Assembly (NCBI GenBank): GCA_964514595.1
Contig: CAZEQZ010000002.1
Coordinates: forward strand, 185,663 to 249,662
Source: an uncultured Candidatus Saccharibacteria bacterium
Lineage (GTDB): Bacteria > Patescibacteriota > Dojkabacteria > SC72
Length of the DNA: 64,000 bases
Direction of reading: 5' to 3'
Positions 4,513 through 57,860 of the stretch are shown here, piece after piece (the stretch's first letter is position 1; the number at the start of each line of letters is the position of its first letter). A model generated the notes under the pieces. That model ran no database searches, was not told where the DNA came from, and worked only from the letters and a program-made list of their open reading frames with translations. Both the position numbers and the translations under genes were made by a program.

Positions 4513-4520
4513 ATATTATA

Positions 4521-5426: not shown

Positions 5427-5487
5427 ATGTGGAGATGATTAAATTATCCTAAATGATAGGGGATACTTATAAACATTACAATAGAAA

Positions 5488-5880: not shown

Positions 5881-5891
5881 TATTTAAAATT

Positions 5892-6326: not shown

Positions 6327-6342
6327 AATTTGTTAACCTCAA

Positions 6343-6855: not shown

Positions 6856-6860
6856 TCCCC

Positions 6861-10418: not shown

Positions 10419-10528
10419 AGTTATACTACGTCGAGTTTATTTGAGAATATTGTATCACAAATAACTATCGAGTTAATGTCAACAAGAATTAATATGCTAT
10501 GGGCATTTAATATAAATTTAATTTTTAT

Positions 10529-11002: not shown

Positions 11003-11081
11003 GCCCTCAAAGACCGATAGAATATTAAATTTCGACACTAAAATCTGTATAGTCCCCTACAAACCAACAAAACTCGCAAAG

Positions 11082-20094: not shown

Positions 20095-20096
20095 TT

Positions 20097-20681: not shown

Positions 20682-20697
20682 TAAGCTAATATATAAT

Positions 20698-21009
20698 TTA
20701 TTGTATTCCTATATCCACACCGGCAGGCATCTGAAGATGCTGTAGGGCATCTATTGTCTTAGGGGTAGGATCAATGATATCTATTATTCTTTTATGAGTG
20801 TTAATCTCAAAGTGTTCAATTGAGCTTTTGTAAATAAATGGCGAACGATTGACTGCTACTTTTCTTTTTCTTGTTGGTAGTGGTATAGGACCAGCCACCT
20901 TAGCACCCGTGCTTATAGCGGTCTCTATAATACTTCTTGCTGATTTATCTACTACAACAGAGTCATAACCCTTAAGTTTTACTCTAATTTTTGCAGTGTT
21001 ATTAGCCAT
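20698..21009 (-). CDS. rpsJ: 30S ribosomal protein S10
   Basis: [39 protein letters not shown]. Confidence 0.92.
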
Positions 21010-31038: not shown

Positions 31039-31078
31039 TCTAGATATCTTATCAACTATTGTTGTAAATTTGAAGTGA

Positions 31079-32122
31079 TTATTCGGGTGCGGGATCTAGT
31101 AACTCTATCTCTTCTGTTTGCTTCTCTATTAAATATTCTGGATTTATACCACATAGATATACTTGTATTTCAGCAAGGTATGTACTTTTGGTAGAATCCA
31201 GCAGTTTTCCAGTTCCTGTTAATTTATACGCAGGGAAGACATATGAGTAATCATAGTTCATAAATACGTATAAATTATCTACGCCTTCAACTTCCAAAGA
31301 TGAGAGTCTAGCAGAAGAACGTACTAAAATATCTTGTTCCCAAAATCTTTCTTCCACAGAGTTTCTCATAAGGTGCATTGGATATTTTGTAAATTTGAGT
31401 ATCTCATCAACTGATATGGTAGGCATCTTCTGTATGGGAACCAATCCTCTCTCAACATCATGAAGAAGAATTGCAAGTGAATACATTCTATTATCCCCCT
31501 CAATACGAATTTCAAATGCATTTCCCTCTAGATATAAAGATCCATACTTAATACCATCCTTTACAAAGAATCCTTTATATAAGTATGAATTCTCGGACTG
31601 CTTCTTTGTCTCTAAAAGCTCTATCTTCTCAATATTAAAATATGTCTTTAAAAATATATCCAAGTCTTTTGCAGAATTAATTTTCATATCTAAGTTAAGT
31701 CCTGTTTGAGATGTAACATAAAATACTCCTGTGTCTTCATCGTATAAGAATGTGTCTGTTTCAAAGGTCTCGTATAATTGATTCTCGTTTGCAATATAAC
31801 GATCGTCCAAATCGTAGAAGTTCTTTATAAAGTTTCTTGCCACAGAGAGATCTGGCTTGTGTAGCTTATATACCATCTGATACTTATCGAATTCTGAGCT
31901 TTCTCCCTGGAGGTTTAATGTAAAATTATCGCTTAATTCCGCAAATGGACTCTCTATGGAGATTATCTCTCCTGCGGGGATATCTTCTTCAACCTTCTTT
32001 GATTTTAGAAAGATTATTGCAATAACAGATAAACCCAGAACAATTCCTATTATTATATACACACCGTAATTTTTTATTATTTTTTTTATTCTATCCATCT
32101 TATCTAGCAAATCCTTTAACAT
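31079..32122 (-). CDS. Bitopic membrane protein (N-terminal TM anchor, extracytoplasmic domain of about 300 aa), unknown function
   Basis: The single hydrophobic helix VYIIIGIVLGLSVIAIIFL follows a basic N-terminus. No catalytic motif was recognised. Confidence 0.4.
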   Translation of the reverse strand: MLKDLLDKMDRIKKIIKNYGVYIIIGIVLGLSVIAIIFLKSKKVEEDIPAGEIISIESPFAELSDNFTLNLQGESSEFDKYQMVYKLHKPDLSVARNFIKNFYDLDDRYIANENQLYETFETDTFLYDEDTGVFYVTSQTGLNLDMKINSAKDLDIFLKTYFNIEKIELLETKKQSENSYLYKGFFVKDGIKYGSLYLEGNAFEIRIEGDNRMYSLAILLHDVERGLVPIQKMPTISVDEILKFTKYPMHLMRNSVEERFWEQDILVRSSARLSSLEVEGVDNLYVFMNYDYSYVFPAYKLTGTGKLLDSTKSTYLAEIQVYLCGINPEYLIEKQTEEIELLDPAPE

Positions 32123-34649: not shown

Positions 34650-34662
34650 AGATATTTAAAAA

Positions 34663-35970
34663 CTATTTAAACATACTTCCAACAAATGGAACTTTTCCAA
34701 ATCCTTCCTTAATTGCCGCAGCTGCATCTGCACCACTCTTGGATGCTGTGGGAGGAATTATTGCTTTTGCCAAGGCAGGAGCTTGAACTGCAGCATAGAT
34801 AGCTATTAATTTTGCTAAAGCGATTAGCATAGGGCCCATATCTCCTATGCTTGCCTGATCACCTGTAAGAGATTTAGGAAAATCTATTGATATGTTTTTT
34901 GTTTCTAGATAGAAGGGTATGTTAACTATGGCAAATGCTATTGGAAAGACTAGGGCATTACGAAATATTGATTTAAATATATTAACTATACTAGCATCAT
35001 TTCCTGGTAAGGAGCCTAACATTATTGATAATGGAGCAACTATCACATTCAACAGTATAGCTAAGTATGATTTAACTAATGTAATCCAAAGCTTTATTGC
35101 TCCAACTAAGGCCGCTCCAGCAATAATTATTCCCAATATAATGGGGATTAATCCGGCTACCGCATTCAGTGTTGCTAACCCCAAGACTATTCCAACTAGA
35201 GATATTGAGGAACCTGTCTGAGCTCCTCCACTCCAAGTTACTGCCCAAATATCATGTATTGGGACCCCACTTCCTAGAAGACTTTTTATTACTGTCATAA
35301 GGACACCGCATATGTCAATAATTACTCCCGCTATGGCAAAACTAAAGGTTACCAAGACTAATGATATTACAACCCTTGGAAGTGTATTACCTAATGTTAC
35401 CAAGGTCTGACCTCCCAGTTTACTTCTAAACATTATCATAAAGCCTACTGCAATCATCACTACAACAAAGGCAAGGTACGCTATATTTCTTGTAAAGGAC
35501 CATATTTCATCAACACCGGTACTCCTAATATCATCATAACCTGAAGCATATATAGATTGTGTCTCTTTATATCCTGGAACCCATTCCCTTGAGAGATGTG
35601 CTATGACATCAATCCTTGGTTGAGAATCAAACATGGCTGTAACTTGACGTTCAGCGGTACCTAATAAACCGTATTTCATCTGATCAGGATAATTTCCTGT
35701 TTGTATCCTAGGATTCGCTTCCGTACACTCTGGACAAAGTATAGCAAGTATGAATTCTCCTATTCCCGTAATGATTTTCCCTACAAACTGGGCTATACTT
35801 TCCCCTACAAAGCCAGTCAGATCTCCAACAAAGGAAACTATATGTTCCCATGTGGTCTTTGTGTCTATGGGTTCACCTAGCGTATCTTGGGCCAGTATAG
35901 GGGAACTTAAGCTTGTGATGAATACAAATAGTGTGGTCATCAATACAACAATTATCCTAAGAGCTTTCAT
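34663..35970 (-). CDS. Polytopic membrane protein, TrbL/VirB6-like topology (signal peptide, extracytoplasmic loop with a Cys pair, about 6 TM helices, Ala-rich C-terminus)
   Basis: Hydropathy pattern. CPECTEANP loop. TM-rich Gly/Ala/Ile core. The family assignment is by architecture only. Confidence 0.35.
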   Translation of the reverse strand: MKALRIIVVLMTTLFVFITSLSSPILAQDTLGEPIDTKTTWEHIVSFVGDLTGFVGESIAQFVGKIITGIGEFILAILCPECTEANPRIQTGNYPDQMKYGLLGTAERQVTAMFDSQPRIDVIAHLSREWVPGYKETQSIYASGYDDIRSTGVDEIWSFTRNIAYLAFVVVMIAVGFMIMFRSKLGGQTLVTLGNTLPRVVISLVLVTFSFAIAGVIIDICGVLMTVIKSLLGSGVPIHDIWAVTWSGGAQTGSSISLVGIVLGLATLNAVAGLIPIILGIIIAGAALVGAIKLWITLVKSYLAILLNVIVAPLSIMLGSLPGNDASIVNIFKSIFRNALVFPIAFAIVNIPFYLETKNISIDFPKSLTGDQASIGDMGPMLIALAKLIAIYAAVQAPALAKAIIPPTASKSGADAAAAIKEGFGKVPFVGSMFK

Positions 35971-35997
35971 ATTTTTATATAATTAAATTTAAAGATA

Positions 35998-37440
35998 TTA
36001 TATTAACAAATAATGCTTTGCTGATTCTCTGTTTAATTCCAAAACTTCATTCCAATACTCTATAAACGTTGGAATAAAGTCTTCTTGACCAGGAGCCTTG
36101 TCTTTAGCCTGCATTCTATAATTCATTAGGAAAGGTGTCGCATCCCATAGACACCACACATCAAATTCTCCTGTTGCTCCATTATCATAAGTTGCTATAC
36201 CACTACATTGTGTAGCTACATAGAACATTAAACTATCTTCAATATTATTAGAGACCTCCTTCTTAGAGGCTGTTTGAAAAGGAGCCTGTGTAGCAAGGTA
36301 TGTGTATGTCATAAAAGCATTAGAACATATACCATTATTACAATCATATGTGTTCCCAAATATTGGTGTCATTTCTACCATGAGACCCCTAGATCTAGGA
36401 CATTTCTCACGCTTAATAGATTTATTCCCCTCTTCATCTATAATTTCAACACCATCTTCATCACAGTAGTCCCATTGATTGGAGCTAAACGTTTGTCTAA
36501 AAAGACCCTTGAAGCGTGTATATATTGATCTTTGGTCACACGCCTTCCATACCCCATCATTAGTACCTAAAAAAGTAACACTAACACTACTCAAACACTC
36601 CGCTTCTCGTTGATAATCATAATTATCTCCTCCTGGGATTTGCTGTCTCGTAAAGCCACCCCCGCTATCTCCCCTCAGATTACTAGCCCCAACGTTGAAA
36701 TCGCTTGTACTAACCTCACGAGGACAGTTACACGCGGGATCATTTTCCGCATTATCTATGTTATATCTTCCATCTCTCTTTTCCTGCTCCTGATTAGCAG
36801 AGACAGTTAATTGACCAGTAACTTCAAATGCCTGTCTTTCAGTAGCTGGCAACTCTTTCACGAAGGCATCGGACTGATATGGAGCCATAGTCTTTTCCAC
36901 TATCGCACCTTCCCACTCTCCACTAGAAGAATACGACGGATCATCCACTCTAATCTGTCTGTTACTATCCTTCATAGTATATGGACCTAACCAGAGAGCG
37001 AGAGGATATGTGACCATAGTAAGTTCAAAATCAACTATATTTTCCACCTCAACTTCATCTCCGGAGAATCCCACAGGATCACCTCCATAATTAGGAACTT
37101 CATAGTGAATCTGTGCACCACCAGATGAGCAAAGCCTTCTCTCCAAATCTACAATATTAGCAGGTTGTCTACACAAAGATGATATCTCTCCCTTAACCTC
37201 TCCTCCCTCTGCATACTCGGTAGCGTTACTATCTTCCAAAAATACATACTCTACATTCTCTGTTACTATATTTTCTTCCCTACTAGGAGAGCATGTTGAG
37301 CACTGTTGCGCATCTTTATTCAACCACCTCCCATCGAACGAAACCTTTATACTTTTAGCTAGGTATACTGAGAAAAGAGCAAAGAATAGCATGCCTAAAA
37401 GAAACAAGATCCCATTTTTCCTACTATTTTTTATACTCAT
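35998..37440 (-). CDS. Secreted cysteine-rich protein (480 aa, about 17 Cys)
   Basis: N-terminal signal anchor (ILFLLGMLFFALFSVYLA). Cys clusters (CSTCSP, PACNCPRE, DYCDEDG, YDCNNGICSN). No known catalytic motif. Confidence 0.4.
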   Translation of the reverse strand: MSIKNSRKNGILFLLGMLFFALFSVYLAKSIKVSFDGRWLNKDAQQCSTCSPSREENIVTENVEYVFLEDSNATEYAEGGEVKGEISSLCRQPANIVDLERRLCSSGGAQIHYEVPNYGGDPVGFSGDEVEVENIVDFELTMVTYPLALWLGPYTMKDSNRQIRVDDPSYSSSGEWEGAIVEKTMAPYQSDAFVKELPATERQAFEVTGQLTVSANQEQEKRDGRYNIDNAENDPACNCPREVSTSDFNVGASNLRGDSGGGFTRQQIPGGDNYDYQREAECLSSVSVTFLGTNDGVWKACDQRSIYTRFKGLFRQTFSSNQWDYCDEDGVEIIDEEGNKSIKREKCPRSRGLMVEMTPIFGNTYDCNNGICSNAFMTYTYLATQAPFQTASKKEVSNNIEDSLMFYVATQCSGIATYDNGATGEFDVWCLWDATPFLMNYRMQAKDKAPGQEDFIPTFIEYWNEVLELNRESAKHYLLI

Positions 37441-39293
37441 AATGCTCTAATCATTTTACCCCCTTTCCTTTGTCTTGTCACACTTCCTTTATATGTGACT
37501 ACCCCTATAGAGATAAGGGCAAAGGAAAGCAATATTAAGTATACTACATTATCCAATATTCCTGTTTTTGGAGTTTCTATCCCCGAATCTACTTCATACT
37601 CTGAATCGTCTGGAGTAACTACTAAATCAGGATTTACACCCGTACTATGTCCTAAGATTCCGTAGTTCTGAAGTAGCTCTACCCTTGTATACCCCACTCC
37701 TGAGCTAGAATTCCCCTCTACGGATATTTCAACATCCCTATCACTTATGCCTTGCATTTTCTCTGTATGTGTACTTGCTGAGAATGTTGTTACCAAATTT
37801 ACATTAAGCGAATCTTCAGACGTATACTCAAAGTATGAGGTACCGTCCTGAACTCTACTTTCGGCTATTGATAGTATCCATTTACCATTCTCATCAACTA
37901 GGGTAGAGAGTTTTAGACTTTCTCCCTTACTTCCTGCACCATCTTCATCCTTAATATGTACCGTAACTACTACTTCCTTATGCTCTGGCATACCATCTAT
38001 CACTCCAGTCACAGATTCGAATGGTGGAGGAGATGTAAGTGTAGAGAAAGTTTTCACTACATATTTATTCCCCCCATTATCGTATTTATTATCCCCTGAT
38101 TCTATCTCAAAGAAATACTCAGTATCTGGTTGTAGTCTACTTAGAACTACAGAGTGGATATAGTAGTTACTTTTTGTTGTAAGGCCATCTCTTTCATCAG
38201 TAGCTTGACTAGACAAAGAATCACGGGAAGTTCCATAGTTAATATGACCTTTCTCTTTATTCTCTGATATCCAAAGAACCGTAAAGCCTGTGTCTGTTAG
38301 GTTTGTTGTTTGCACACTTGCAGCACCAGACACACCCGAGACTGCTGATCCATCTCCCGTGACCATATCTATCCATTGCAAATTATGTACTATCCTAAAT
38401 ACTCTTCCTGTGTTTCCAGTTGGAGTATCATCTGTCTCCTGGGCTGGAGGGGTTGTCGGAGTTGTTGGCGTTGTCGGTTGTGTGGGCTCTTCTGGTTCTG
38501 CTACAAATGCCTCCAACATAGATACAGGAGGAAAGTCGTTGTATAGAGAGGAATTATCGCCAATTGTTAAGGCATACACATCCTTCAATTTACCACTGCT
38601 ATCAAATAGTTCGGAGTATGTACCTTCCTGTACTGCACCTTTATTAGGACCGGAGATAGCAACAAGAACTATGTTAGTAGAATTGGTAACTACAATAGGG
38701 GTCTTATTGGCAATACTTCTAAATGCAGAGAGGTCTATAACCCAATTACCTCCTGTGGGAATGGTGGTTGATACAGGATACGCAGATTTATCTTTAAGAA
38801 GGGCATATATTATTACATCGTCTCCCACTACCCCCTTAATTCCTCCATGTATGGGATTGGGAGTTGCAGACGTCTCTGTTATTGGAGCAGTTTTGAATGC
38901 AAAGTTTTTGTTTCCTTCACTACGATACTTCTCTCTATCCGATACTATTACAAATTCGTATTGAGTATTTGGATCTAAGTCTTCAATATCGATATGGTGC
39001 GTGTATCTTCTTCTATTACCTCTTTTTGTATCAACAATGGGACTTTTTTCTATTCCATTTTGGATAGGTATTACAGAACCAAATGACTGTACATCTGTGA
39101 CCCAGCTTACGGTAACGGCACTTGTAGTTAATTTACTAATAACAACATTACGAGGTTGTGCCTCTGCTGACGCTCTCGTTATGAGTTGGTATGCTTGGTA
39201 TGATGCAAAAACTACCAAAGGTATTCCTATTAACAGTATCCCTATTATCGTGAGATCTCTTCTTCTTTTACTAGGTACAGTAGCTATTCTCAT
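37437..39293 (-). CDS. Cell-surface protein: N-terminal TM, two purple-acid-phosphatase-N-type fibronectin-III-like domains, Pro/Thr linker, C-terminal TM anchor with basic tail
   Basis: VVISKLTTSAVTVSWVTD...YTHHIDIEDLDPNTQYEFVI and FTVLWISENKEKGHINYG...YYIHSVVLSRLQPDTEYFFEI. PTQPTTPTTPTTPP linker. The C-terminal ETPKTG + LILLSFALISIGVV + RQRKGGK. Confidence 0.5.
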   Translation of the reverse strand: MRIATVPSKRRRDLTIIGILLIGIPLVVFASYQAYQLITRASAEAQPRNVVISKLTTSAVTVSWVTDVQSFGSVIPIQNGIEKSPIVDTKRGNRRRYTHHIDIEDLDPNTQYEFVIVSDREKYRSEGNKNFAFKTAPITETSATPNPIHGGIKGVVGDDVIIYALLKDKSAYPVSTTIPTGGNWVIDLSAFRSIANKTPIVVTNSTNIVLVAISGPNKGAVQEGTYSELFDSSGKLKDVYALTIGDNSSLYNDFPPVSMLEAFVAEPEEPTQPTTPTTPTTPPAQETDDTPTGNTGRVFRIVHNLQWIDMVTGDGSAVSGVSGAASVQTTNLTDTGFTVLWISENKEKGHINYGTSRDSLSSQATDERDGLTTKSNYYIHSVVLSRLQPDTEYFFEIESGDNKYDNGGNKYVVKTFSTLTSPPPFESVTGVIDGMPEHKEVVVTVHIKDEDGAGSKGESLKLSTLVDENGKWILSIAESRVQDGTSYFEYTSEDSLNVNLVTTFSASTHTEKMQGISDRDVEISVEGNSSSGVGYTRVELLQNYGILGHSTGVNPDLVVTPDDSEYEVDSGIETPKTGILDNVVYLILLSFALISIGVVTYKGSVTRQRKGGKMIRAL

Positions 39294-39341
39294 TAATGAT
39301 TATGATACCTGTAATAAGGCTAGAAAACAATCTATGTATTA

Positions 39342-42300
39342 TTATCTTACACTAGGATGCCAGTTACCTACACCCTTTATAACCCTTACGAAGTATGATC
39401 TTTGTTTTTCTATAGGAAAATCAAAGCCGTAGGTTTGAGCACTACCCTCTACAGAAGTATCTCTTTGAAAACCTTCATACGACCCCTTACTCTCTTGCCA
39501 CCTAGTAACATTATCTGCATCAAAATCTATACCTTTGTAGTTAGCTATGTCTTCTAATAATGATTTAGCTGTGTATGATTTAGCCTTAGAACCGTATACC
39601 CCTACTAAGTTCCATCCAGGAATTAGTAGTATGGGTGCAGAATCTCCTATTTGTTCATATTTTATTTCTTTACCAAAGAGAGAAACTCTTATATCCTTTT
39701 TAACATTTAACAGATATCCCTCACCTGGGAGTATCCTAAAGTCATTCTGATCATAGTTACCTGCATTAGCTCCAACTGAGATCCATTTACCATTTTCTAA
39801 TTTTGATATAGAGGAAACAGAATTACCAATGACACTGTTTAGATATTTAATAAGACCGGAAGCTTTATTTAATTCAGATCTTTCATTTATAAAAGGAAAG
39901 GATATCAAATTGAAACCTTTTTTAAGGTCATACCTGTATTCTCTTTGTATTGTAATAACCTCTAAGGTTTCAAAATCTTTACTTAGATTAGTATCTCCTG
40001 AGTCTATTATTCCGTTACCATTAGAGTCCAAGTATACATCAGCACCTTTTGAGTCTGTATCATTTATTATAGCTAAGTAATAATCACCATTTACATTGAA
40101 TATATGCACCCCTCTTCCTACCCTCTCCAAGATGTCTTCTTTTGTATTTATAATATATGACTCGAACTCCTCTGTCTCTTCAGCAAAAACTTTCCCTAAG
40201 ATACTAAATCCTTTGCTCTCAAAGCTTAAGCTTTTATCTTCATTTGTATTCTGAATACTACACCTAGTGTATCTCCCTGAGCCCGAGCCACATACTCCAA
40301 AGTCTTCTATATACGTTTTTATAGCAAAATTTCTATCTTGTGTTGCTTTCATACTCTCGTATTTTTCCTGAGTAATAGGGACCCACTCTTCCTCTGCTGT
40401 AAATTCGTTAATTAATATAGTGGCTACTACAACTCCCCCTACCACAAGAGCTGCTGTTCCCAATCCGACACCCGTTGTTGCCGCTGCTGCTTCTGTAGTT
40501 ATATATATTGTTGGCGCCTGACTAACCGCAAGAGCTGAAGTAGAAGTAGATGCGGCTGTGGTAGCTAGCGATGAGCCTGTGTATACTGTAAGTGCTTTGG
40601 TCCCTACGTAGGGGACAATAGGATACAAACTAGCAGAGGCATATGGCATATCATCAAGTATCTTCTGTATTTCAGGATCTGGTTCTTTTGCATTATTTTC
40701 TTTAAACTTTGCCCATAGTCGATCTACTGCACCTATACTATCACAGTGATAATACATACCTGTATCCGCATTATGATATAGAGTACCCGCTTGCCCATCA
40801 CATTCCTTTCCTGACAAATTGTCAGCCGGAGGGACTTGTAGAAAAGGCATTGCCTGAGCACCAGCTTCTGCATCTATACCAACCCCTTCATCTGGACTCA
40901 TAGAAATACCGTACTCATGTCCTTCGATCCCCCAACGTTTCGTTTCTCCATTACATTTAAGACTACCATCTATGGTAACATAGCCATCACTAAACCAACA
41001 TTTATATGTATAACTATAACAATCCCGTGTAGTACCTGTATTAAATCCTCCACATAGACCTCTACTGTCGGCTTCATCCGCCATTCTATCCCTTAATTCA
41101 TCTGTATATTTATCTTCCGTATCTGGATGTACTTTCACTCTTCCATCTGGGGTACATAAGCACATTTGTGCTGGACCGATGGGTTTTTGTTCATTTGCAC
41201 ACGCACAATCACACTCTTGACTATTACTATATCCACACATCCCCATGTGTCCACAAATATCACCTACACATGTACCTTGTACTCTATTAAAATTAATCTC
41301 ACAATCAGAAGTAAAAACGTCAAAGGTCCCAAGACCAGAAACATTAATTCTTTTACACATTGGAATATCTACCCCATCTATTTTTTTTGTACATGCGTCG
41401 TTAAAACAACTTCCCAGTTCACAACTAACTGAACCTTGCCCCCCACTTGTATCTCTTCCATTAGAACCTGCAAATATCTGTTCATTTATATCCGCATCTA
41501 TAGGGTCCGTACAAGAACCATCAAGCGGATCTAAACAATACCCACCATCATTACTAGGTTCAAATTTAGGAGTACAATCGGGATCCCCCCACCCCAATCT
41601 AGAATCACTACAAACTTCACATTGATTATTATCTCCTCCATCTGTATCCTCCGCACTCACTCCGAAAACAAAAGCTCTTAAATCTATACCATTGAAATCC
41701 TTATTTGTATTAACTACCTCCTTATTCTCTTTCCCAAAAGAATTACCCTCATATATGACACTCTCATCTAACTCATCATCCATTCTCATATCTATAGCCT
41801 TTGCAGGTGCCTTATTATATACATCTATCTCAGTACTCCATCTCCCTTTCCACGTATTCTCTATCGTTAACTTAAGTTTTATATATGTACCTTCATAATC
41901 CTTTACACTATCCCAAAAAGTTGTACCATCCTCCATATATGCATTCATAATATCTAAATACCATCCACCTTCTTCATTTGTAATAGATGAAATCATCTCA
42001 GATTCCACTTGATATATCTCTTCATATACCGTCGCATACACTATTGCATCAGAAGGCCTCTCATAGCCAACCACATCATCTACGTAGTACCTAACAACTC
42101 CATATGCTGGTTCAGGAGTCCTAATTTCCTCAATCTCTTTTCCTGTCTTAAAAGAGTATTCCCCAGTATTCTCAGAAGAAACCCTCTTAAACACATTCCC
42201 ATCCCCAATCATGAAATAGTACTCTTTATTAGATTCCAAACCTCGTATGGTAGCATGATGGACATAATATTCACCCATATCTGTAACTACTATATCGGTA

Positions 42301-42731
42301 AATATCTCCCCTGCATCCACACTACTACTTCCTTCCTCTGATACTTTCTCAGAATTCCTCTGTGCCTCATCTAATTCAGCCTTAGTATAGTCTCTATCAT
42401 CATATGCTAACAAAGAGTTTCCAATCTTGGGCATAAAGGGAAGAATAAAATTTCTCTCCTGATACATAACCATCCCAGGAGTTGGCTCTTCTGTAATCCA
42501 AGATACTGTTGCTGATCCTGCAGTCACATTACTAACCATTACCCTATATGGCACAAAAGAGGATGCCTTATACCATCCCCATATACCTATTCCTATAACG
42601 GCTACTAAACAAACAACTAATACAGGAATAATTACTTTAAGGAAATTAAACTTACCCTTTTCTTTAACCTCAACTTGCTGAACCTGCGGTTCTACGACTG
42701 AAGGAGGAGTCTCTTGATTACCTTCGTACAT
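39342..42731 (-). CDS. Giant (1129 aa) surface protein: N-terminal TM, PAP-N-type Fn3-like domain, long Cys-rich extracellular module, internal hydrophobic segment, C-terminal domain
   Basis: MVSNVTAGSATVSWITEEPTPGMVMYQE...YYVHHATIRGLESNKEYYFMIGDG is paralogous to the neighbouring 618-aa protein. More than 40 Cys lie between residues about 365-660. A TM-like GVGLGTAALVVGGVVVATIL segment follows. Confidence 0.5.
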   Translation of the reverse strand: MYEGNQETPPSVVEPQVQQVEVKEKGKFNFLKVIIPVLVVCLVAVIGIGIWGWYKASSFVPYRVMVSNVTAGSATVSWITEEPTPGMVMYQERNFILPFMPKIGNSLLAYDDRDYTKAELDEAQRNSEKVSEEGSSSVDAGEIFTDIVVTDMGEYYVHHATIRGLESNKEYYFMIGDGNVFKRVSSENTGEYSFKTGKEIEEIRTPEPAYGVVRYYVDDVVGYERPSDAIVYATVYEEIYQVESEMISSITNEEGGWYLDIMNAYMEDGTTFWDSVKDYEGTYIKLKLTIENTWKGRWSTEIDVYNKAPAKAIDMRMDDELDESVIYEGNSFGKENKEVVNTNKDFNGIDLRAFVFGVSAEDTDGGDNNQCEVCSDSRLGWGDPDCTPKFEPSNDGGYCLDPLDGSCTDPIDADINEQIFAGSNGRDTSGGQGSVSCELGSCFNDACTKKIDGVDIPMCKRINVSGLGTFDVFTSDCEINFNRVQGTCVGDICGHMGMCGYSNSQECDCACANEQKPIGPAQMCLCTPDGRVKVHPDTEDKYTDELRDRMADEADSRGLCGGFNTGTTRDCYSYTYKCWFSDGYVTIDGSLKCNGETKRWGIEGHEYGISMSPDEGVGIDAEAGAQAMPFLQVPPADNLSGKECDGQAGTLYHNADTGMYYHCDSIGAVDRLWAKFKENNAKEPDPEIQKILDDMPYASASLYPIVPYVGTKALTVYTGSSLATTAASTSTSALAVSQAPTIYITTEAAAATTGVGLGTAALVVGGVVVATILINEFTAEEEWVPITQEKYESMKATQDRNFAIKTYIEDFGVCGSGSGRYTRCSIQNTNEDKSLSFESKGFSILGKVFAEETEEFESYIINTKEDILERVGRGVHIFNVNGDYYLAIINDTDSKGADVYLDSNGNGIIDSGDTNLSKDFETLEVITIQREYRYDLKKGFNLISFPFINERSELNKASGLIKYLNSVIGNSVSSISKLENGKWISVGANAGNYDQNDFRILPGEGYLLNVKKDIRVSLFGKEIKYEQIGDSAPILLIPGWNLVGVYGSKAKSYTAKSLLEDIANYKGIDFDADNVTRWQESKGSYEGFQRDTSVEGSAQTYGFDFPIEKQRSYFVRVIKGVGNWHPSVR

Positions 42732-48536: not shown

Positions 48537-50096
48537 CTATTTAATAACCTTATAACAATGTATTTCGTCACCCTCTTTGACATCTATCTGATCTATTAAT
48601 TGAATTCCACAATCAAATCCAGTTTTCACCTCATTAACAGTATCTTTATTTATCCTCAAAGTCTTTATTTTTGATTCCCCAATTATCTCATCATCTCTTA
48701 CTATATCAACCTTACAATCCTTCTTAAGGTAGCCCTTGCTTACTCTACAACCCACTATCGTAGTACCATCGGACAGAGTAAATAGTGCCTTCACCTTTGC
48801 ACTTCCTATCTCCTCTTCCTTGCTTGTTGGCAATGACATCAATGATACGGCTTCCTGAACTTCTTCTATCAACTTATATATGATTTCATATGTTTTAACC
48901 AATATTCTTTTCTTTTTAGAATAGTCCATAACACCAGATTCTATTCCCACCTCAAATCCTAAAAGTATTGCTTTAGAAAGTTCTGCTAACTCCGCATCAC
49001 CCAAACTAATATTACCTACACCTGCGTTAACTATCTTAACCTTATATCCATCTTCCTCTATTTTACTCAGTGAATTAACTATAGCTTCTAAAGAACCTTC
49101 AGAAGAGCTTTTCACTACAACATTTAGGAAATCTCCTAAGTCTTCTTCACTCAAGGTGAAAAACTCTTCTAAAGTTACATCCTCTTCCTCGTCTTCTTTT
49201 TTTTCTTCTTTGTACATAGATCTTAATTTTGCTTCGTCCTTTTTTTCTAGAATATATATCTGGGTACCAAGCTCTAAGAGATTTGACACTCCAATAATCT
49301 TCCCTCCACAACCGCAATCAAGCATGCATAGATTTTCTCCTTCCTCTGTTATTATCCCCTTTACCTTCTCTAGAACAAATTCGCCATCTAATTTGTATCC
49401 TAACCAATTTCCTTGACACACCTCTCCCTGGATTAATGCTATTGAGGACATATTGCCTTTAAATTTATCCTTTACCGATTCCAACACGAATGCCTTCCCT
49501 AATATCCCAGAAGGAAGTTCATCAGACTCTCTTACTCCCTCTACTTCTGCAACGAGAAGTATTAAATCCAAAAGTTCTGGAATACCTTTTCCTGTTTTAC
49601 CAGAAACCTCGATCACAGGTACGCTTCCTCCATACCCTTCTAACTGAAGACCGTTATTAACTATATCTCTTTTTACCTTATCTAAAGATATATCTGGAAG
49701 ATCTGTTTTATTTATCACAGCAATTGGTTTGGCATCAGAATTGTTAATTATCTCTATTGATTCTTTTGTTTGAGGTTTAACACCATCATCAGCAGCTACT
49801 ACTAAAAGTACAATATCCGCAATACTACCTCCTCTAGATCTCATTAAATCAAATGCTTCATGGCCAGGAGTATCAACAAAAGTTACTCTCTCTCCATTAG
49901 GAATCTGTACTGTGAATACTGATACTTTCTGCGTTATACCACCTGCTTCACAACCCTGAACGTTGCTTTCTCTAATTTTATCTAGTATGGTGGTCTTTCC
50001 GTGATCTACATGTCCTAAGATAGTTACAATAGGGGGTCTAGCACAACCTTGTGTGCTTTTAGAGTCCTTGTTTGTAACCTTCTTTGCCTTAGGCAT
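48537..50096 (-). CDS. infB: Translation initiation factor IF-2, short form (519 aa, no long N-terminal region)
   Basis: G-domain GHVDHGKTTILD, DTPGHEAF and NKTD motifs, then beta-barrel domains. Confidence 0.9.
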   Translation of the reverse strand: MPKAKKVTNKDSKSTQGCARPPIVTILGHVDHGKTTILDKIRESNVQGCEAGGITQKVSVFTVQIPNGERVTFVDTPGHEAFDLMRSRGGSIADIVLLVVAADDGVKPQTKESIEIINNSDAKPIAVINKTDLPDISLDKVKRDIVNNGLQLEGYGGSVPVIEVSGKTGKGIPELLDLILLVAEVEGVRESDELPSGILGKAFVLESVKDKFKGNMSSIALIQGEVCQGNWLGYKLDGEFVLEKVKGIITEEGENLCMLDCGCGGKIIGVSNLLELGTQIYILEKKDEAKLRSMYKEEKKEDEEEDVTLEEFFTLSEEDLGDFLNVVVKSSSEGSLEAIVNSLSKIEEDGYKVKIVNAGVGNISLGDAELAELSKAILLGFEVGIESGVMDYSKKKRILVKTYEIIYKLIEEVQEAVSLMSLPTSKEEEIGSAKVKALFTLSDGTTIVGCRVSKGYLKKDCKVDIVRDDEIIGESKIKTLRINKDTVNEVKTGFDCGIQLIDQIDVKEGDEIHCYKVIK

Positions 50097-50117: not shown

Positions 50118-51305
50118 TTATTCCTCTTTCTCATCACTTTCTTCTGATGGTTCTTCTGTTTTAATATTTTCCTCCTCTATACTCTTTTCAGCAACATCTT
50201 CTTTCTCCTCAGTTTGCTTTTCAGTTGCTTTTTCCTCCATATCTTCTTTCGTAACGACCTCACCTCCCGATCCAACTATGTCTATCTTAAAACCTGTCAA
50301 TTTCCAAGCTAATCTAACATTCTGTCCGTCTCTTCCTATTGCCAAAGATAGTTGGTCATCTGCCACAGTTACTGTTGCAGTGTCATCTTCTATTTTAACC
50401 TCATCTATTTTAGCTGGGCTTAGTGCATTGGCAACAAATTGCTCTGGCTCCTCGTCCCACTCTATTATATCAATCTTTTCTTCTCCTAGCTCGTTCATTA
50501 CATTTGCGATACGAATACCTCTCTGTCCGACACACGAACCTATTGGATCAACACCATCTTGCGTGGAGTTCACCGCCATTTTACTTCTAGATCCTGCCTC
50601 CCTTGCAATTGCTTTGACTTCTAAAACTCCAGATTCTATTTCAGGAACTTCCAACTTAAAGAGCTCTATTAAGAAATTAGGATCTGCTCTAGATACCATC
50701 ATCTGAGAATCTACTATATCTTTCAAAAGTACTTTGTACCTATCCCCCAATCTGTAGAATTCGTTTGGTATCTGCTCCTCTACAGGCATATATGCAGTAG
50801 CTTTTCCTATTTCAAATATAACCTGTCCTTTCTGCATCCTTTGCATAAGAGCTGTAAAGACCTCCCCAACCTTGTCACTATACTCACTTATTACTGCATC
50901 TTTTTCAGATTCTCTTATTTTCTGAAGAATTACCTGCTTTGCCGTTTGTGCTGCTATTCTACCGAAATCCTCTGTGGGCATCTCTATCTGAATTGAATCT
51001 CCAACCTCAACGCTTGGGGATATTAGCTCAGCTTCTGATACAGATATTTCCATATCATGATCTTTTACTTTTTTTACAACTTCTTTTGTAGCTATTAGTT
51101 TGTAATCTCCTGTTTCTCTATCCATTTCTACTGAAAGGTTGCTACCCTGCTCATCTTCCTCATCTCTATCTATATTTGTATATTTTTCCTTCTTATATGC
51201 CACTAATATAGCCGACTCAAGAGCTTGGAATATTTCCTCCTTCTCTATACCTCTTTCTGCAGCTATTTGATTAATAGCGGCAACAAATTCTGATATCATT
51301 GCCAT
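50118..51305 (-). CDS. nusA: Transcription termination/antitermination factor NusA with acidic C-terminal tail
   Basis: N-terminal domain, S1 domain and two KH domains (GSCVGQRGIRI, GRDGQNVRLA). Confidence 0.9.
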   Translation of the reverse strand: MAMISEFVAAINQIAAERGIEKEEIFQALESAILVAYKKEKYTNIDRDEEDEQGSNLSVEMDRETGDYKLIATKEVVKKVKDHDMEISVSEAELISPSVEVGDSIQIEMPTEDFGRIAAQTAKQVILQKIRESEKDAVISEYSDKVGEVFTALMQRMQKGQVIFEIGKATAYMPVEEQIPNEFYRLGDRYKVLLKDIVDSQMMVSRADPNFLIELFKLEVPEIESGVLEVKAIAREAGSRSKMAVNSTQDGVDPIGSCVGQRGIRIANVMNELGEEKIDIIEWDEEPEQFVANALSPAKIDEVKIEDDTATVTVADDQLSLAIGRDGQNVRLAWKLTGFKIDIVGSGGEVVTKEDMEEKATEKQTEEKEDVAEKSIEEENIKTEEPSEESDEKEE

Positions 51306-51337
51306 TTTAGTTTGTTAATCAATTTAAATTTATACCT

Positions 51338-51368
51338 AAAAAAAAAGGTGAGAATATTTATCCTCACC
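51338..51368 (-). terminator. Rho-independent terminator (GGTGAG-N10-CTCACC followed by T9 on the minus strand) downstream of the dockerin-like gene, upstream of nusA
   Basis: A 6-bp GC-rich stem plus a 9-nt U tract seen directly in the sequence. Confidence 0.65.
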
Positions 51369-51440
51369 CTCCTCTTTGTATAACTTTCAATTAAGAGTAT
51401 AGCATAACGAAAAAGGAAAGCCAACAAATTTGAAATTATT

Positions 51441-52424
51441 TCAATTCAAATTAATAATTGTTGTCCTTTGAATCAAACGTGTACTCTCAGGATCAAATTC
51501 TCGGTGTATTCCCAAAATTATATTCGAAGAACCACTACTAGCTATTGCTTTAAAATAATAAGTTACAGTAGTTGTATTTCCACCGACCAAACCATTTCCT
51601 ACACTAGAGACATCTCTACCTATTAATTCCATCAGATTTGGATTGTATTGCGGATCAAAATCTGTGTAACCTGTTGTTACATTATACTCAACCGTGAATT
51701 TAACTATTTCTCCTTCCTTCATAGAAATACTCTTATTATCGCTTTCGTCACCATTTATTATCTCAGACTCCGATCTTTGTACATAAAAAATAAAATCGTA
51801 ATTTTTCCCTACATTTACTACCCCCTCTTTCTCAAAATCTTTAATCACTTGGGCACAAACAGTATCTGCAGAGGGAGAAGTAATCAATAATGTAACATTA
51901 ATAATTTTACTCTCCAAATCCTTCTTCGTTGATACCGTTGCCCCGTAACAAGGATTGGGTAAGGTTCCAGTTACAACGTATTTCCATCTACTATCTCCTT
52001 TGTATGTAGCAATTAATTTGAATCCCTCAACAGACCTATTTAGTCCAATATTCTCGGAAATCTCTTCCTTCGTAGGGATATTCCCCGCCTTGTACTCTCT
52101 CCACAACCTTAACCAAAGAGAAAAATCCATCAGTGTTATATTATTATCCGAATCTAAATCTCCTACCAAATTAATTTGGTTTTGTTTATTTTTAAATTTT
52201 CTAAAATTATCCAACCATATGCTAAAGTCTTTTAATGAAATAGAGTTATCATCATCTAAATCTGCTTGTTTAAATTTTTCTCCTAACTCAGCAATCTGTC
52301 CAGCACTACTTCTAGTGTCGAAAACCCCAGATCCCTCTAGAACATAGAATATTGTTAATGGAGTAATTAAGAAAAATCCTATTAGATAAAACAGTACTCT
52401 AACATTATTGTTTAACTTAAACAT
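51441..52424 (-). CDS. Membrane-anchored protein with two dockerin-type (EF-hand-like) repeats and C-terminal beta-rich domain
   Basis: N-terminal TM. The paired repeats DLDDDNSISLKDFSIWL and GDLDSDNNITLMDFSLWL match the D-x-D-x-D-x-x-I-x-x-x-D 12-residue calcium-loop pattern of dockerin repeats. Confidence 0.45.
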   Translation of the reverse strand: MFKLNNNVRVLFYLIGFFLITPLTIFYVLEGSGVFDTRSSAGQIAELGEKFKQADLDDDNSISLKDFSIWLDNFRKFKNKQNQINLVGDLDSDNNITLMDFSLWLRLWREYKAGNIPTKEEISENIGLNRSVEGFKLIATYKGDSRWKYVVTGTLPNPCYGATVSTKKDLESKIINVTLLITSPSADTVCAQVIKDFEKEGVVNVGKNYDFIFYVQRSESEIINGDESDNKSISMKEGEIVKFTVEYNVTTGYTDFDPQYNPNLMELIGRDVSSVGNGLVGGNTTTVTYYFKAIASSGSSNIILGIHREFDPESTRLIQRTTIINLN

Positions 52425-52486
52425 AATTTTATTTCCCCAATATATATTATATTAGTCTATGAAATCCTTTTAGAAAAAACAATATG

Positions 52487-53584
52487 TCAATATTCTTTTG
52501 AAAGCTTGTCCCATAATTCCTTTTCTCTCCTGTTTAACCTTGTTGGTATATCGACATTTATCCTAACATACTGATCTCCCCTTTCTCCCTCTCTATTAAA
52601 TACAGGACATCCCTTGTTTTTAAGTTTAAATATTGTCCCAGACTGTGTACCTTTAGGAATTTTTAATTTAACATCCCCTGTTATTGTTTCCACAGATATC
52701 GTTCCTCCTAAAACTGCAACGGGTACCGGGATATTTTCTTCTGAATAAATATCATTACCCCTCCTATCAAACTTCTCTGATGCTTCAACTTCTATTTCAA
52801 TATATAGATCTCCCACTGTACCTTGATTCCTTCCTGTATTCCCCCCACCTCTAAACCTAAGAACCATACCATCGTATGCACCTGCAGGGATTTTAATGGT
52901 TAATGTTTCTTCCTTACTTTTTACTCCTGTACCTTTACACTCCTTACACGGATTTTCTATAACCTTGCCTGTACCTTGACAATTGGAACATGTTGACATC
53001 ACTGCCATCTGCCCAAGAATTGTATTTCTAACCTGTCTCTGTTGACCTGTTCCATTACAGACAGGACATTCCTTTGTCTTACCATCATCACTACCAGTAC
53101 CTTCACATTTTTCACACCTATCTTCTCTCTTAATCTTTATCTTATACTCTCCCCCCTTCATTGCTTCATCAAAACTAACCCTAACCTTATACCTTATATC
53201 TGAGCCAACATCTTCCCTAGGACCTCTACCCTGTGTACCAAAATCAAAACCAAATCCACTGCCAAAATTACCTCCTCCAAAGAAGGTATTGAAGATATCA
53301 CCCATATCAAACGGAGTACCTTGAAAATCGTATCCATTTCCCGCAGTTCCGGGATTAAATCCTGCTGTACCAGCATGACCGTACTGATCGTATGCCTTTC
53401 TCTTTCCTTCATCCGAGAGAGTTTCGTATGCCTCCTGTATTTCTTTAAATTTCTCTTCTGCATCCGATTCCTTATTTACATCAGGATGATATTTTTTAAC
53501 AAGCTTTCTGTATGCTTTTTTAAGCTGATCACCGCTTGCATCTTTTTTAACACCTAATACTTCATAGTAGTCTCGTTTTTCCAT
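52487..53584 (-). CDS. dnaJ: Chaperone DnaJ (J domain, Gly/Phe region, four CxxCxGxG zinc-finger repeats, C-terminal domains)
   Basis: DYYEVLGV...HPD J-domain; [32 protein letters not shown]. Confidence 0.92.
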
Positions 53585-53663
53585 AACAGAATGATTTTAG
53601 CAAAGTATGTATATATTTGCTACCCATTTTATCTACAATCTTAAATCTGCTAATATCTATACT

Positions 53664-54458
53664 ATGGAAAATAGTTGGAACGTACAAACACATAGTGAAA
53701 ACAAAGTACGAAGAATACGCATATGGATATCTGCTGTATTGGCACTGTCTGGTTTAGTTATAGTTTCCAGCCAGGTTATACCTTTGACAAAATCATACGT
53801 GGAGGGAGTGGTGGAACAAAGGAGAGTTGACATAAAGGTGGATCCTGTACCAGAGTCGTATAAAAAATATATAGAAGAAGAGTTCGCATATTATGATCCT
53901 GGGAAGAGCTACTTTGCAAATCTTTCCCAGCAGTTGGGGAATTTAGACATTACAGGACAATACTCATATAACCCAGATACCAAGACACAAAGAGAAGTTC
54001 TAATAGACAGAGAGTACAAGACGGATATGTCCGTCACTATTGAGAGTGTAGGGATTAAAAATATTAAAATATCATCGAACGTGGAGAGTTCTAATGAATC
54101 TGTATACAATCAATATCTTAAAAATGGTGTTGCCCACTTTAAAGGTACACCTCTTCCGGGAGATGGAGGAAATTCGTTCATATATGGGCATAGCGCTGTT
54201 GAATCATTTTTTAGTAGACATAGGGATTTGCCTGAAACAATATTTTCTAGACTGAATGATATAGATATTGGACAAAAGGTTGTTGTAAATAGAGAGGATA
54301 AAGTATTAGAATATATCGTAAGGAACAAGAAGATTGTAGATCCTGATGATTTTACAATCCTACAACCTTTACACAACAAAGAAACAGTAACATTAATGAC
54401 TTGTTGGCCTTTGGGTATAGGAACTAAGAGATTAATAGTAGTTGCTGAAAGGAGATAA
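53664..54458 (+). CDS. Sortase (cysteine transpeptidase); the ORF is open from 53607, but the second Met at 53664 is the more plausible start
   Basis: N-terminal TM anchor. Catalytic His in NSFIYGHSAV. TLxTC motif VTLMTCWP. Conserved Arg nine residues later (TKRLIVVAE). Confidence 0.7.
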   Translation: MENSWNVQTHSENKVRRIRIWISAVLALSGLVIVSSQVIPLTKSYVEGVVEQRRVDIKVDPVPESYKKYIEEEFAYYDPGKSYFANLSQQLGNLDITGQYSYNPDTKTQREVLIDREYKTDMSVTIESVGIKNIKISSNVESSNESVYNQYLKNGVAHFKGTPLPGDGGNSFIYGHSAVESFFSRHRDLPETIFSRLNDIDIGQKVVVNREDKVLEYIVRNKKIVDPDDFTILQPLHNKETVTLMTCWPLGIGTKRLIVVAERR

Positions 54459-55832: not shown

Positions 55833-57860
55833 ATGCCCAGAAGAAGTGCCCCAAAACAATACGCCCAAAGATCAGTTATATATCTGACATTTTTTCTCTT
55901 GCTATCTATTCCTGTAGTACTATATGGATTGGCACAAGAGAATCTGGATACCAGAAGACGAGCTTTTGAAGATCTGGAGCTCAGTGAAGAACACCCATGT
56001 TTAATATCACTTCCCAATGTTAACCCATACTCTTTGCAAGTTGGGAGAACAGTTACTATACAGGTAGATGCACTACTCAAGGATGACTACATAGATGAAT
56101 TAGAAATATCTGACTCATCTGGCGACATAATCTATCAAGAAACATTCGAAGGTGCTCCTCTAGAAATAGCTACTAGTTTTCCATTTACACCAAAAGAGTC
56201 GGGAGAGGTAGATATGCTAGGTATTATAAAAAAGGGACAGGGAGGTCGCGTAGAATGTGAAATAAGTAGCCCATACGACATAAAGGGCCTTAGAGCAATA
56301 ACTAATAACAGCTCTCCTGAGTTCACATCCAATCCATCACAATCAGAACCTTCTCAAAATATTGTAACGGGGGATCAGTATGAATATACTGTAACTGCTA
56401 CAGATGCAGATGGTGATAGAATAAACTACAGCTACTCTTTCACGCCCAGGGCTGATTGGTTAAAACCTGTGATCATAGAAGATGGTTCTAATGGGAAATT
56501 AACTATAAAGTTCAGAGGATCTTCGAATAAAGCTGCTAGCTACCTAGCTAACATTTTCATACATGATGGATATAGCAAACATCTAAGATCTCAATCTTGG
56601 GTAATCAGTGTAAGTCCAAAAGAGAATGATATCCCTATTGTCAGAATCATAGACCCCATACAAAGTATTAGAATAGATAGAGGAACTTCGTTTAAAACAT
56701 CTTGGGAAGCTACAGATCTTAATCATATTATTAGATATGAACTATATATTACCAACAACCCCGCAAACGAGGAGTCCTGGAAAGCAATAGATACAGACAT
56801 TGATTATAATACAACTTCATATACTGTAGAGACCCAAGATATTACCCCAGGGACGTATAAAATAATAACCAAGGCAATAGATAATCAAAATCCTGCAGGT
56901 GTAGGTATGGGTGTTTCCTCTGAAATAGTGATAAGTGGAAGTACAGAACAAGAGGAGAAAGATGACGTTGTTACCTTGGAACAGCCTCAGGTCGTAAATA
57001 TGTCCCCTATCAGTACAGAAGAAATTACAAATAAAAGGGTCACTGTGAGAGCTACCATTATTGCCAGTAAAGACTCCACCGTTGATGAGAACAGTATTAA
57101 ATTCACCTTGGATGGAAATGATATAACAGACTCTATCAAGATAAATAGAATCACAAGTAGTGAGCTAACTCTAATATATCAACCGGAGGAAGATCTAGAG
57201 GAGGGAGTACATAAAGCAGAGGTTAGATTTTTGGATAGTAAAGGACTGAGTGTGTCAAAATCTTGGAACTTCACTATACAGGGAGACAGTAGTACTAAAG
57301 AAGATACGTATACAATATTTGGATATGAAATTGCTCAAAACATTGTACTCATAGTGGGAATAGGTGTAATAACAGTCATCCTAGCCTTAGTGGCACCATT
57401 TGTAATATTCACAATTTGGAAGGAGGATAAAGGAGAGAGCGATTTCTATGGACAGCCAAATAGCAAACTTCCTCCATCTACTCCTGTTGATAATACACCG
57501 TATATACTATCCGATGAGAACAACCGAATCAAAGAAAAGGTTGATACTAAGCCAACATCAGAGAAGAAAGAGGAAGATGTTTGGGATATGTATTCCGCTG
57601 CTAAACCAGTGGTAACAGAAGAACAAAAGAGTAAAGATTTGGAGGACCTACAACAGAAAGATTCCATGGAACCATCACCCACCCCACAAAACCAACCTGC
57701 GCTAGAACCAACCGTTAAAGCAGAGCAAGAAATTCCTGTTTCAGAACCTGTAATCCCTGAGCCGGAGATTCCTGACGCTCAGGATTTAGAAAAGATATTT
57801 CAACAAATACAACAGGCTAAGCAAGAAGAGAAACAACAACCTCCTGTAGTTAATGAATAG
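55833..57860 (+). CDS. Cell-surface protein with Ig/cadherin-like beta-sandwich repeats, C-terminal TM and P/E/Q-rich cytoplasmic tail of about 130 aa
   Basis: N-terminal TM. YEYTVTATDADGDRINYSYSF (cadherin-like/Big motif). TM IVLIVGIGVITVILALVAPFVIF. Tail rich in P, E, Q. Confidence 0.45.
   Translation: MPRRSAPKQYAQRSVIYLTFFLLLSIPVVLYGLAQENLDTRRRAFEDLELSEEHPCLISLPNVNPYSLQVGRTVTIQVDALLKDDYIDELEISDSSGDIIYQETFEGAPLEIATSFPFTPKESGEVDMLGIIKKGQGGRVECEISSPYDIKGLRAITNNSSPEFTSNPSQSEPSQNIVTGDQYEYTVTATDADGDRINYSYSFTPRADWLKPVIIEDGSNGKLTIKFRGSSNKAASYLANIFIHDGYSKHLRSQSWVISVSPKENDIPIVRIIDPIQSIRIDRGTSFKTSWEATDLNHIIRYELYITNNPANEESWKAIDTDIDYNTTSYTVETQDITPGTYKIITKAIDNQNPAGVGMGVSSEIVISGSTEQEEKDDVVTLEQPQVVNMSPISTEEITNKRVTVRATIIASKDSTVDENSIKFTLDGNDITDSIKINRITSSELTLIYQPEEDLEEGVHKAEVRFLDSKGLSVSKSWNFTIQGDSSTKEDTYTIFGYEIAQNIVLIVGIGVITVILALVAPFVIFTIWKEDKGESDFYGQPNSKLPPSTPVDNTPYILSDENNRIKEKVDTKPTSEKKEEDVWDMYSAAKPVVTEEQKSKDLEDLQQKDSMEPSPTPQNQPALEPTVKAEQEIPVSEPVIPEPEIPDAQDLEKIFQQIQQAKQEEKQQPPVVNE

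Follow-up and report, generated by a model that had tools for sequence, protein, structure and literature searches.

The locus and its gene

The gene considered here lies on the minus strand of a 64-kb stretch of DNA, referred to throughout as the window, and encodes a protein of 327 aa in which a leader is followed by a dockerin module, a beta-sandwich and a chagasin-like domain. Its neighbours on the same strand are dnaJ (52487-53584), nusA (50118-51305) and infB (48537-50096). Divergently oriented genes code for a sortase (53607-54458), a solute-binding protein and a surface protein of 675 aa. The sortase, matched by Pfam at 84 bits, is encoded 1.2 kb from the dockerin gene. The features of the gene, in order from its 5' end, are as follows.

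52434..52438, minus strand: Shine-Dalgarno-like GGGGA, 9 nt 5' of the ATG, read off the sequence
51441..52424, minus strand: whole gene, 327 aa, from the ORF list
52338..52424, minus strand: export leader, basic aa 1-9 followed by the 20-residue hydrophobic segment aa 10-29, from an alignment of 40 N-termini
52302..52322, minus strand: FDTRSSA, aa 35-41, candidate signal-peptidase site (cleavage after A41), from family conservation
52080..52289, minus strand: dockerin-fold module, aa 46-115
52188..52262, minus strand: dockerin repeat 1, aa 55-79, DLDDDNSISLKDFSIWLDNFRKFK
52086..52160, minus strand: dockerin repeat 2, aa 89-113, DLDSDNNITLMDFSLWLRLWREYK, the sole stretch matched by Pfam Dockerin_1 (aa 88-109)
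51771..52046, minus strand: seven-strand beta-sandwich domain, aa 127-218, with two invariant Cys (C159, C190)
51444..51755, minus strand: chagasin-like (MEROPS I42) domain, aa 224-327, from a 16-member profile and loop motifs

Terminator-like sites were not found in 51200-52600, and promoter-like matches there did not rise above shuffle level. The identical 327-aa protein is encoded on 16 public contigs from NCBI, JGI, ENA and Logan assemblies, the largest of 760,270 bp, and a relative sharing 86% identity is also available (P0002). The G+C content of the window is 34-38%, and its other contents include a ribosomal-protein/SecY block and an RNase P RNA. Together with the labels borne by relatives of the protein, these features suggest a bacterium of the candidate phyla radiation (CPR, Patescibacteria), of Microgenomates type and with a small genome.

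Tandem loop-helix repeats

Two segments, DLDDDNSISLKDFSIWL (aa 55-71, plus-strand positions 52212-52262) and GDLDSDNNITLMDFSLWL (aa 88-105, plus-strand positions 52110-52163), had been taken in a sequence-only reading of this DNA for the duplicated calcium-loop-plus-helix signature of type I dockerins. Both are indeed encoded, on the minus strand of the ORF 51441-52424, and the repeats of which they are part agree at 14 of 25 positions and are conserved in the family. The interval assigned to them, 52064-52259, started one codon inside the first Asp and was otherwise correct; the separation of about 25 aa was not, the measured gap being 16 residues and the distance from loop start to loop start 34. 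A spacing of 34 residues falls within the dockerin range and is shared with type I dockerins, among them that of C. thermocellum Xyn10B, whose loop starts are likewise 34 residues apart.

The loop pattern D-x-[DN]-x-[DNS]-x2-[IVL]-x3-D occurs four times in the six-frame translation of the window, where the repeats at aa 55/89 form the only pair spaced 25-45 residues apart; residue shuffles (n=200) contained on average 0.29 loops and never such a pair. In the alignment of 39 relatives, D occupies loop position 1 in 36/39 (repeat 1) and 39/39 (repeat 2) and loop position 12 in 39/39 of either repeat; positions 3, 5 and 8 are N/D, D/N and I/V, respectively. The helices follow the subfamily motif DF-x-IWL-xx-(Y/F)R-x-(Y/F)K, with Trp at position 16 in 37 (repeat 1) and all 39 (repeat 2) of these relatives; this W, together with R at position 21 and K at position 24, is strictly conserved in both repeats, all three being surface-facing helix residues. 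Two tandem segments of calcium loop plus helix, with D/N at loop positions 1, 3 and 5 and D at position 12, are the arrangement of type I dockerins, which similarly consist of two near-symmetric repeats of about 22 residues, each a 12-residue loop (D1, D/N3, D/N5, D12) followed by a helix. In contrast to type I dockerins, the subfamily to which the window protein belongs has the invariant Trp and is without a Ser-Thr recognition pair.

Dockerin or EF-hand

Judged alone, the sequence of the 327-aa protein is ambiguous between a dockerin and an EF-hand. A search with Pfam Dockerin_1 (PF00404), which had been proposed as a check on the sequence-only reading, left the protein under the curated cut-off (14.7 bits versus 22.9; E 0.036, repeat 2 only), as did Pfam EF-hand_7 (18.3 bits versus 30) and NCBIfam dockerin_GC (13.4 bits versus 29), and the best single-sequence matches among solved structures were calmodulin N-lobes (E ~2e-3). 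When 1.8 billion representative proteins were searched exhaustively, 209 matches came up and revealed three independent modules in the protein, and the loop-helix region of 39 N-terminal relatives was assembled into a family alignment (A1). When solved structures were searched with the A1 profile, the dockerin 2y3n_B came first at E 3.2e-6 in a match spanning both loops, followed by 2yik_A and 5nrk_B, and EF-hand proteins ranked below. Dockerin_1 is also the commonest Pfam match among the relatives, found in 36 of the 39 isolated modules at E<=1 (best 1.3e-8) and in 18/42 full-length relatives at E<=1e-3 (best 4.5e-7), as against 8/42 for EF-hand_7.

AlphaFold2 models aa 40-116 with confidence (pLDDT 88.6, pTM 0.77) as a succession of a short helix (49-54), a calcium loop (55-66), a helix of 16 residues (64-79), a linker, a second calcium loop (89-100) and a helix of 18 residues (98-115), with no helix entering loop 2. 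These are the two loop-helix 'F-hands' with antiparallel long helices of a dockerin; an EF-hand pair (PF13499) would instead show four helices and, as residue 12 of each loop, a bidentate Glu. Loop position 12 is usually Asp in dockerins and Glu in canonical EF-hands. The predicted fold superposes at 2.0-3.0 A on the type I cellulosomal dockerins of C. cellulolyticum Cel5A (2vn5), C. thermocellum Xyn10B (2ccl/1ohz) and P. cellulosolvens (2y3n), differing from them in a linker that lacks the middle helix. The calmodulin reading given by the single-sequence search was overruled by the family profile and the predicted fold. By profile and by model, the module is a dockerin fold belonging to a divergent dockerin subfamily, and the earlier view of the repeats as dockerin-like and not a generic EF-hand pair is upheld by the match of A1 to 2y3n_B, the Pfam counts and the Asp at position 12, as well as by the structure prediction.

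Export leader and cassette

Upstream of the dockerin, the aligned leaders share the consensus FLLxTPLxVFY, with TPL...FY conserved, and within the FDTRSSA stretch F35, D36, R38, S39 and A41 are each at least 90% conserved among 42 family members, equal to the calcium ligands. The S-x-A sits 12 residues past the hydrophobic segment, a position that fits a signal-peptidase I site, and since it is nearly invariant the whole may represent a cleaved export leader; judging from these patterns, cleavage after the conserved S-x-A is probable. Similar motifs mark the leaders of two further surface proteins encoded in the window, LDTRRRA on the 675-aa protein and LITRASA on a 618-aa protein. Both have C-terminal anchors of their own, a TM segment in the former and TPKTG plus a TM segment in the latter, which argues for a lineage-typical cleaved leader and not a membrane anchor specific to the dockerin. 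The TM anchor described in the sequence-only reading is thus present as a hydrophobic segment, and its role as a permanent anchor is doubtful with an S-x-A following it.

Leader and dockerin together form a cassette, composed of the basic end, the 20-residue hydrophobic segment and G-V-F-D-T-R-S-x-A followed by the dockerin, and this N-terminal 115 aa recurs as the head of about 45-55 proteins of 74-1729 aa, whose sources are labelled Candidatus Microgenomates, Dojkabacteria or Saccharibacteria (CPR). A profile search of genome contigs with a 7-member alignment found three loci and a metagenome search seven, while the whole 327-aa protein matched nothing in the genome-contig search. Passengers of the cassette recognised by Pfam include RCC1 (4), Big_2 (3), LamG (3) and GH10 xylanases (2), with DUF285, LRR_5, a clostripain-family C11 peptidase and alpha/beta hydrolases occurring once each, and several members carry one to five copies of the beta-sandwich domain of the window protein. 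Type I dockerins are likewise reused on glycoside hydrolases, peptidases and binding proteins. Passengers of these kinds are typical of dockerin-borne exoproteins, and the pattern is the one expected of an addressing module.

The chagasin-like passenger

The C-terminal domain (aa 224-327) falls under the Pfam cut-off for Inhibitor_I42 (PF09394; 19 bits versus 27.2, E 1.7e-3), and the best relative reaches 24 bits. A profile of 16 I42-domain members nevertheless aligns over its full length with amoebiasin-2 (3m86_A) at E 1.2e-6. The three loops characteristic of I42 inhibitors (NPTTG in L2, GxGG in L4, RPW/F in L6) are present in the window protein as NVTTGY, GLVGGN and HREFDP, and STGY, GGD and R-x-W are conserved in the 16 relatives. 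The domain keeps the xTTGY, GxxGG and R-x-(W/F) loops shared by chagasin, amoebiasin-2 and P. aeruginosa ICP (2wgn), and by profile and loop comparison it is related to the chagasin family; inhibition of papain-type peptidases at the surface would be in keeping with this relationship. It differs from I42 inhibitors in scoring under the Pfam cut-off and in being fused to a dockerin and an extra beta-sandwich.

Cohesins and candidate receptors

A cohesin-like domain, which the sequence-only reading had suggested looking for in the genome, was not found in the surroundings of the gene. None of the genes called in the window and in the 10 kb flanking it at either end (~84 kb) matched Pfam Cohesin, nor did ten uncharacterised surface proteins at E<=0.1; custom profiles for cohesin and for the two small-protein families described below had no match in the same interval, in which dockerin paralogues were not found either.

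Another cassette member, P0003, presents a different picture together with its orthologues at loci L004, L008, L009, L011 and L012. At each of these five loci, the ones with sufficient flanking sequence, two paralogous genes for small proteins come after the dockerin gene, although these loci are orthologous and syntenic and therefore count as one evolutionary observation. Each of the small proteins opens with a signal peptide and continues with a domain of about 125 aa, in which two cysteines are conserved, and with a linker that leads to an anchor at the C-terminus. In one of the families (24 sequences) this anchor has the form of a sortase signal, in which an invariant LPDSG precedes a hydrophobic segment and a basic, Arg/Lys-rich tail; L, P and G of LP(D/Q)(S/T)G are invariant in the 24 sequences. 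None of 23 homologues of the LPDSG proteins lies on a 760,270-bp contig.

Pfam, and profiles compared with solved structures, gave no match for the small proteins, and hhalign against a CipA-type (type I) cohesin profile gave a probability of 0.1-0.2%, that profile being narrow because a word-index cohesin search had yielded only close relatives of CipA. A cohesin accepted by Pfam (34.8 bits versus a cut-off of 24.1) is encoded at L014:4480-5109, carries an LPTSG signal and allows a different comparison. Aligned with it as full proteins, the LPDSG proteins reach an hhalign probability of 93.7-95.1%; for the domain only, the probability is 39% against this single cohesin and 74% (E 2.9e-5) against the four L014 cohesin domains. 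A domain-only HMM scores the L014 cohesin weakly (hmmsearch, 16.8 bits), and phmmer with the L014 cohesin domain alone did not reach the LPDSG family. These profile comparisons make the LPDSG proteins probable, if unproven, divergent ScaE-type cohesins.

L014 is an unrelated metagenome locus in which the relevant genes stand in a row, encoding two C-terminal dockerins of the DFEIW subtype, one protein with both Cohesin and Dockerin_1, and two small cohesin proteins. This gene row means that the 'DFEIWR'/DFEIW dockerin subtype co-occurs with real cohesins. An absence of any cohesin-like partner, named beforehand together with the lack of a dockerin profile hit as grounds for abandoning the dockerin reading, therefore does not hold for the family, as cohesin-like proteins adjoin other members.

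Proposed mechanism and alternatives

We consider it somewhat probable that the window protein is exported, that its leader is probably cut, and that its dockerin, loaded with Ca2+, docks onto a wall-anchored receptor of cohesin type and so displays the inhibitor passenger. The family leader, with its basic end, hydrophobic segment and FDTRSxA, would take the protein across the membrane, and after a cut behind S-x-A the folded part of the mature protein would begin with the dockerin. The two loop-helix repeats of this dockerin, nearly identical, predicted to bind calcium and packed like those of type I dockerins in cellulosomes, would plug in the Ca2+-loaded state into a wall-held receptor of cohesin type, candidates for which are, in related genomes, the small LPDSG proteins encoded directly after the dockerin genes. 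Docking would then display the beta-sandwich and the chagasin-like domain at the cell surface, where the latter may bind and inhibit papain-type cysteine peptidases of environmental or host origin. Surface tethering through the dockerin is retained here from the sequence-only reading, with its direction reversed if the leader is cleaved, for in that case the dockerin tethers the 327-aa protein to a receptor instead of tethering a partner to a membrane-anchored protein. Among the points that speak against this reading are the score of the protein, which lies below every curated cut-off, the calmodulins as its best single-sequence matches among solved structures, the lack of a cohesin in the ~84 kb, the weak domain-level likeness of the small proteins to cohesins and the N-terminal place of its dockerin, dockerins being usually C-terminal.

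The direction originally proposed would apply if the hydrophobic segment stayed in the membrane permanently as a type II anchor and the dockerin, close to the membrane, recruited a soluble or wall-bound partner bearing a cohesin. The length of the segment, 20 residues, and a TPL...FY conserved like a functional helix and not like a disposable signal are in accord with such an anchor. The nearly invariant S-x-A 12 residues past it is not, nor is the sharing of this leader type with the 675-aa and 618-aa proteins, which are anchored at their C-termini, and the candidate cohesins of the relatives are themselves anchored in wall or membrane, which makes them receptors and not cargo. A permanent anchor is on balance unlikely.

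Rather improbable, too, is a role independent of any cohesin, in which the module would serve as a calcium-stabilised spacer or stalk, or bind a wall glycopolymer or a host surface glycan. Such a role would account for the lack of a cohesin in the ~84 kb; many organisms with dockerin-like modules lack recognisable cohesins (Peer et al. 2009, as cited in PMC6487960), and a dockerin-domain protein of Saccharibacteria has been proposed to target host glycans (PMC10633639). Against it stand the adjacency of dockerin genes with cohesin or cohesin-like genes in two separate contexts and a strictness of conservation at W16, R21 and K24 that exceeds the needs of a calcium clasp. A canonical EF-hand pair acting as calcium sensor or buffer, which would suit the calmodulin N-lobes as top single-sequence matches (E 2e-3), the marginally higher score of EF-hand_7 than of Dockerin_1 on the 327-aa protein and the short helix preceding loop 1, is contradicted by the fold, the Asp at position 12 and the extracytoplasmic context, and is very improbable.

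Relation to known systems

A non-cellulosomal cohesin-dockerin display system is the best reading of the window protein, with a receptor family that is plausible and unproven. The dockerin-fold module of the locus is real, and it is unusual in where it sits, in its host and in its cargo: set against type I dockerins it is N-terminal, directly behind an export leader, instead of C-terminal, and its host is a non-cellulolytic CPR bacterium, with the protein falling under the Pfam cut-off. Dockerin-like modules outside cellulosomes are already known (Peer et al. 2009, as cited in PMC6487960). In the non-cellulosomal pair NagH-NagJ of C. perfringens (2ozn), the phylum and the passengers are different and the dockerin is at the opposite end of the protein.

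On the receptor side, the closest likeness is to ScaE of R. flavefaciens, since the small proteins of the relatives combine, as ScaE does, a signal peptide, one cohesin-like domain, a linker and an LPxSG sortase signal. ScaE is a sortase-anchored scaffoldin, and this architecture attaches the Ruminococcus cellulosome to the wall (PMC11557425). The comparison differs in that the cohesin homology of the CPR small proteins gives a weak signal and that no gene of this kind was seen near the window gene.

Among CPR proteins, SEML1_0315 of Southlakia epibionticum (Saccharibacteria) also has a dockerin domain. It is mentioned in passing as a cell-envelope protein with a dockerin annotation, reported to be essential (PMC10633639); the likeness is one of annotation, and that paper describes neither a cohesin partner nor an N-terminal cassette for SEML1_0315. 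The literature searched contained no paper on cohesin-dockerin systems in CPR bacteria, on an N-terminal leader-dockerin cassette or on a dockerin fused to a chagasin-type inhibitor.

Significance

A life attached to other cells is assumed for CPR bacteria, and the organisation of their surfaces is little known. A cassette borne by varied exoproteins, combined with sortase-anchored cohesin-like receptors, would provide a concrete and testable mechanism of surface display in this group, and would extend cohesin-dockerin assembly to a new phylum, to an N-terminal position and to a chagasin-type inhibitor as cargo. More broadly, and only tentatively, Microgenomates-type CPR bacteria may possess a cellulosome-like display system of their own, in which the cassette of leader and Trp-type dockerin addresses proteins to small, sortase-anchored receptors with a single cohesin and the window protein represents inhibitor cargo. 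The exoproteome displayed in this way would include xylanases, a clostripain-like peptidase, protease inhibitors, binders of the RCC1, LamG and LRR types and tandem beta-sandwich proteins, amounting, if true, to an exchangeable surface toolkit for ultra-small, host-dependent cells. Protein engineering would also gain a compact new affinity pair in the Trp-type dockerin and the small receptors.

Small anchored proteins beside the dockerin gene in related loci

In the five related loci listed below, which carry P0003, another member of the dockerin family, or a gene of its type, the dockerin gene is always followed by two paralogous small anchored proteins, the region being flanked by a radical-SAM gene on one side and proS on the other. 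The first paralogue, of about 200 aa, is encoded on the opposite strand and has a C-terminal transmembrane segment, and the second, of about 230 aa, carries an LPDSG signal.

Positions of the small-protein pair in five related loci
L004, 11688-13104
L008, 5876-7273
L009, 8650-10105
L011, 7820-9240
L012, 7770-9200

Immediately downstream of this cohesin-like pair in L009, from the 'LaPlata_bin-3090' genome, lies a form II/III-like RuBisCO large-subunit gene (10126-11487). A separate metagenome locus, L014 (Ga0210015_1001548, 1-6995), is compact and cellulosome-like, as are L013, L016 and L017.

Genes of L014 in order
First two listed genes, proteins with DFEIWR-type dockerins at the C-terminus
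Next gene, 582-aa protein with Cohesin and Dockerin_1
Next gene, cohesin protein of 211 aa
Next gene, cohesin protein of 209 aa with an LPTSG sortase signal
Last listed gene, fn3-like protein

Surface proteins of the window and their shared leader

Three surface proteins of the window, the dockerin protein among them, have in common an unusual leader in which a basic end precedes a hydrophobic segment with proline at its centre, followed by the motif [FLI][DT]TR[SRA]xA, of which the FD-RS-A residues are conserved at 90% or more in the dockerin family. The leader may represent a lineage-specific signal-peptide class or processing site.

Leader positions in the window
52302-52397 (-), dockerin protein, ITPLTIFY then VFDTRSSA
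55833-55980 (+), 675-aa surface protein, SIPVVLY then NLDTRRRA
39150-39293 (-), 618-aa surface protein, GIPLVVF then LITRASA

The 618-aa fn3/Pur_ac_phosph_N protein (37437-39293, -) ends in TPKTGILDN, a transmembrane segment and a basic tail, which looks like a variant sortase signal, similar to the LPDSGLFDD and LPTSGVIDN found in the cohesin-like proteins that related loci encode. The sortase gene (53607-54458, +) adjoins dnaJ, 14 kb from the gene for the 618-aa protein. The latter belongs to a run of seven large genes (29860-42731, -; 1129, 618, 480, 435, 849, 347 and 392 aa), whose products are apparently mostly secreted or membrane proteins and are mostly unannotated, fn3/Pur_ac_phosph_N and SH3_3 being the only recognised domains. 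The 1129-aa surface protein contains a single EF-hand/dockerin-like loop, DSNGNGIIDSGD (about 39990-40030, -), with no second repeat.

Other features of the window and its flanks

The bacterial class A RNase P RNA (4220-4505, -; 177.9 bits) is overlapped by a mechanical ORF (3526-4305) that is probably not a gene. Within the ribosomal protein region, a Y1_Tnp gene encoding an IS200/IS605-type transposase (10529-11002, +) separates secY from adk, and a second copy lies immediately beyond the left window end (7928-8359 of the left flank, L019). About 9-10 kb past the right window end, the presence of PrgI-like and TraC-like genes (19704-20942 of the right flank, L018) suggests that a gene cluster of the type IV secretion or conjugation type begins there.
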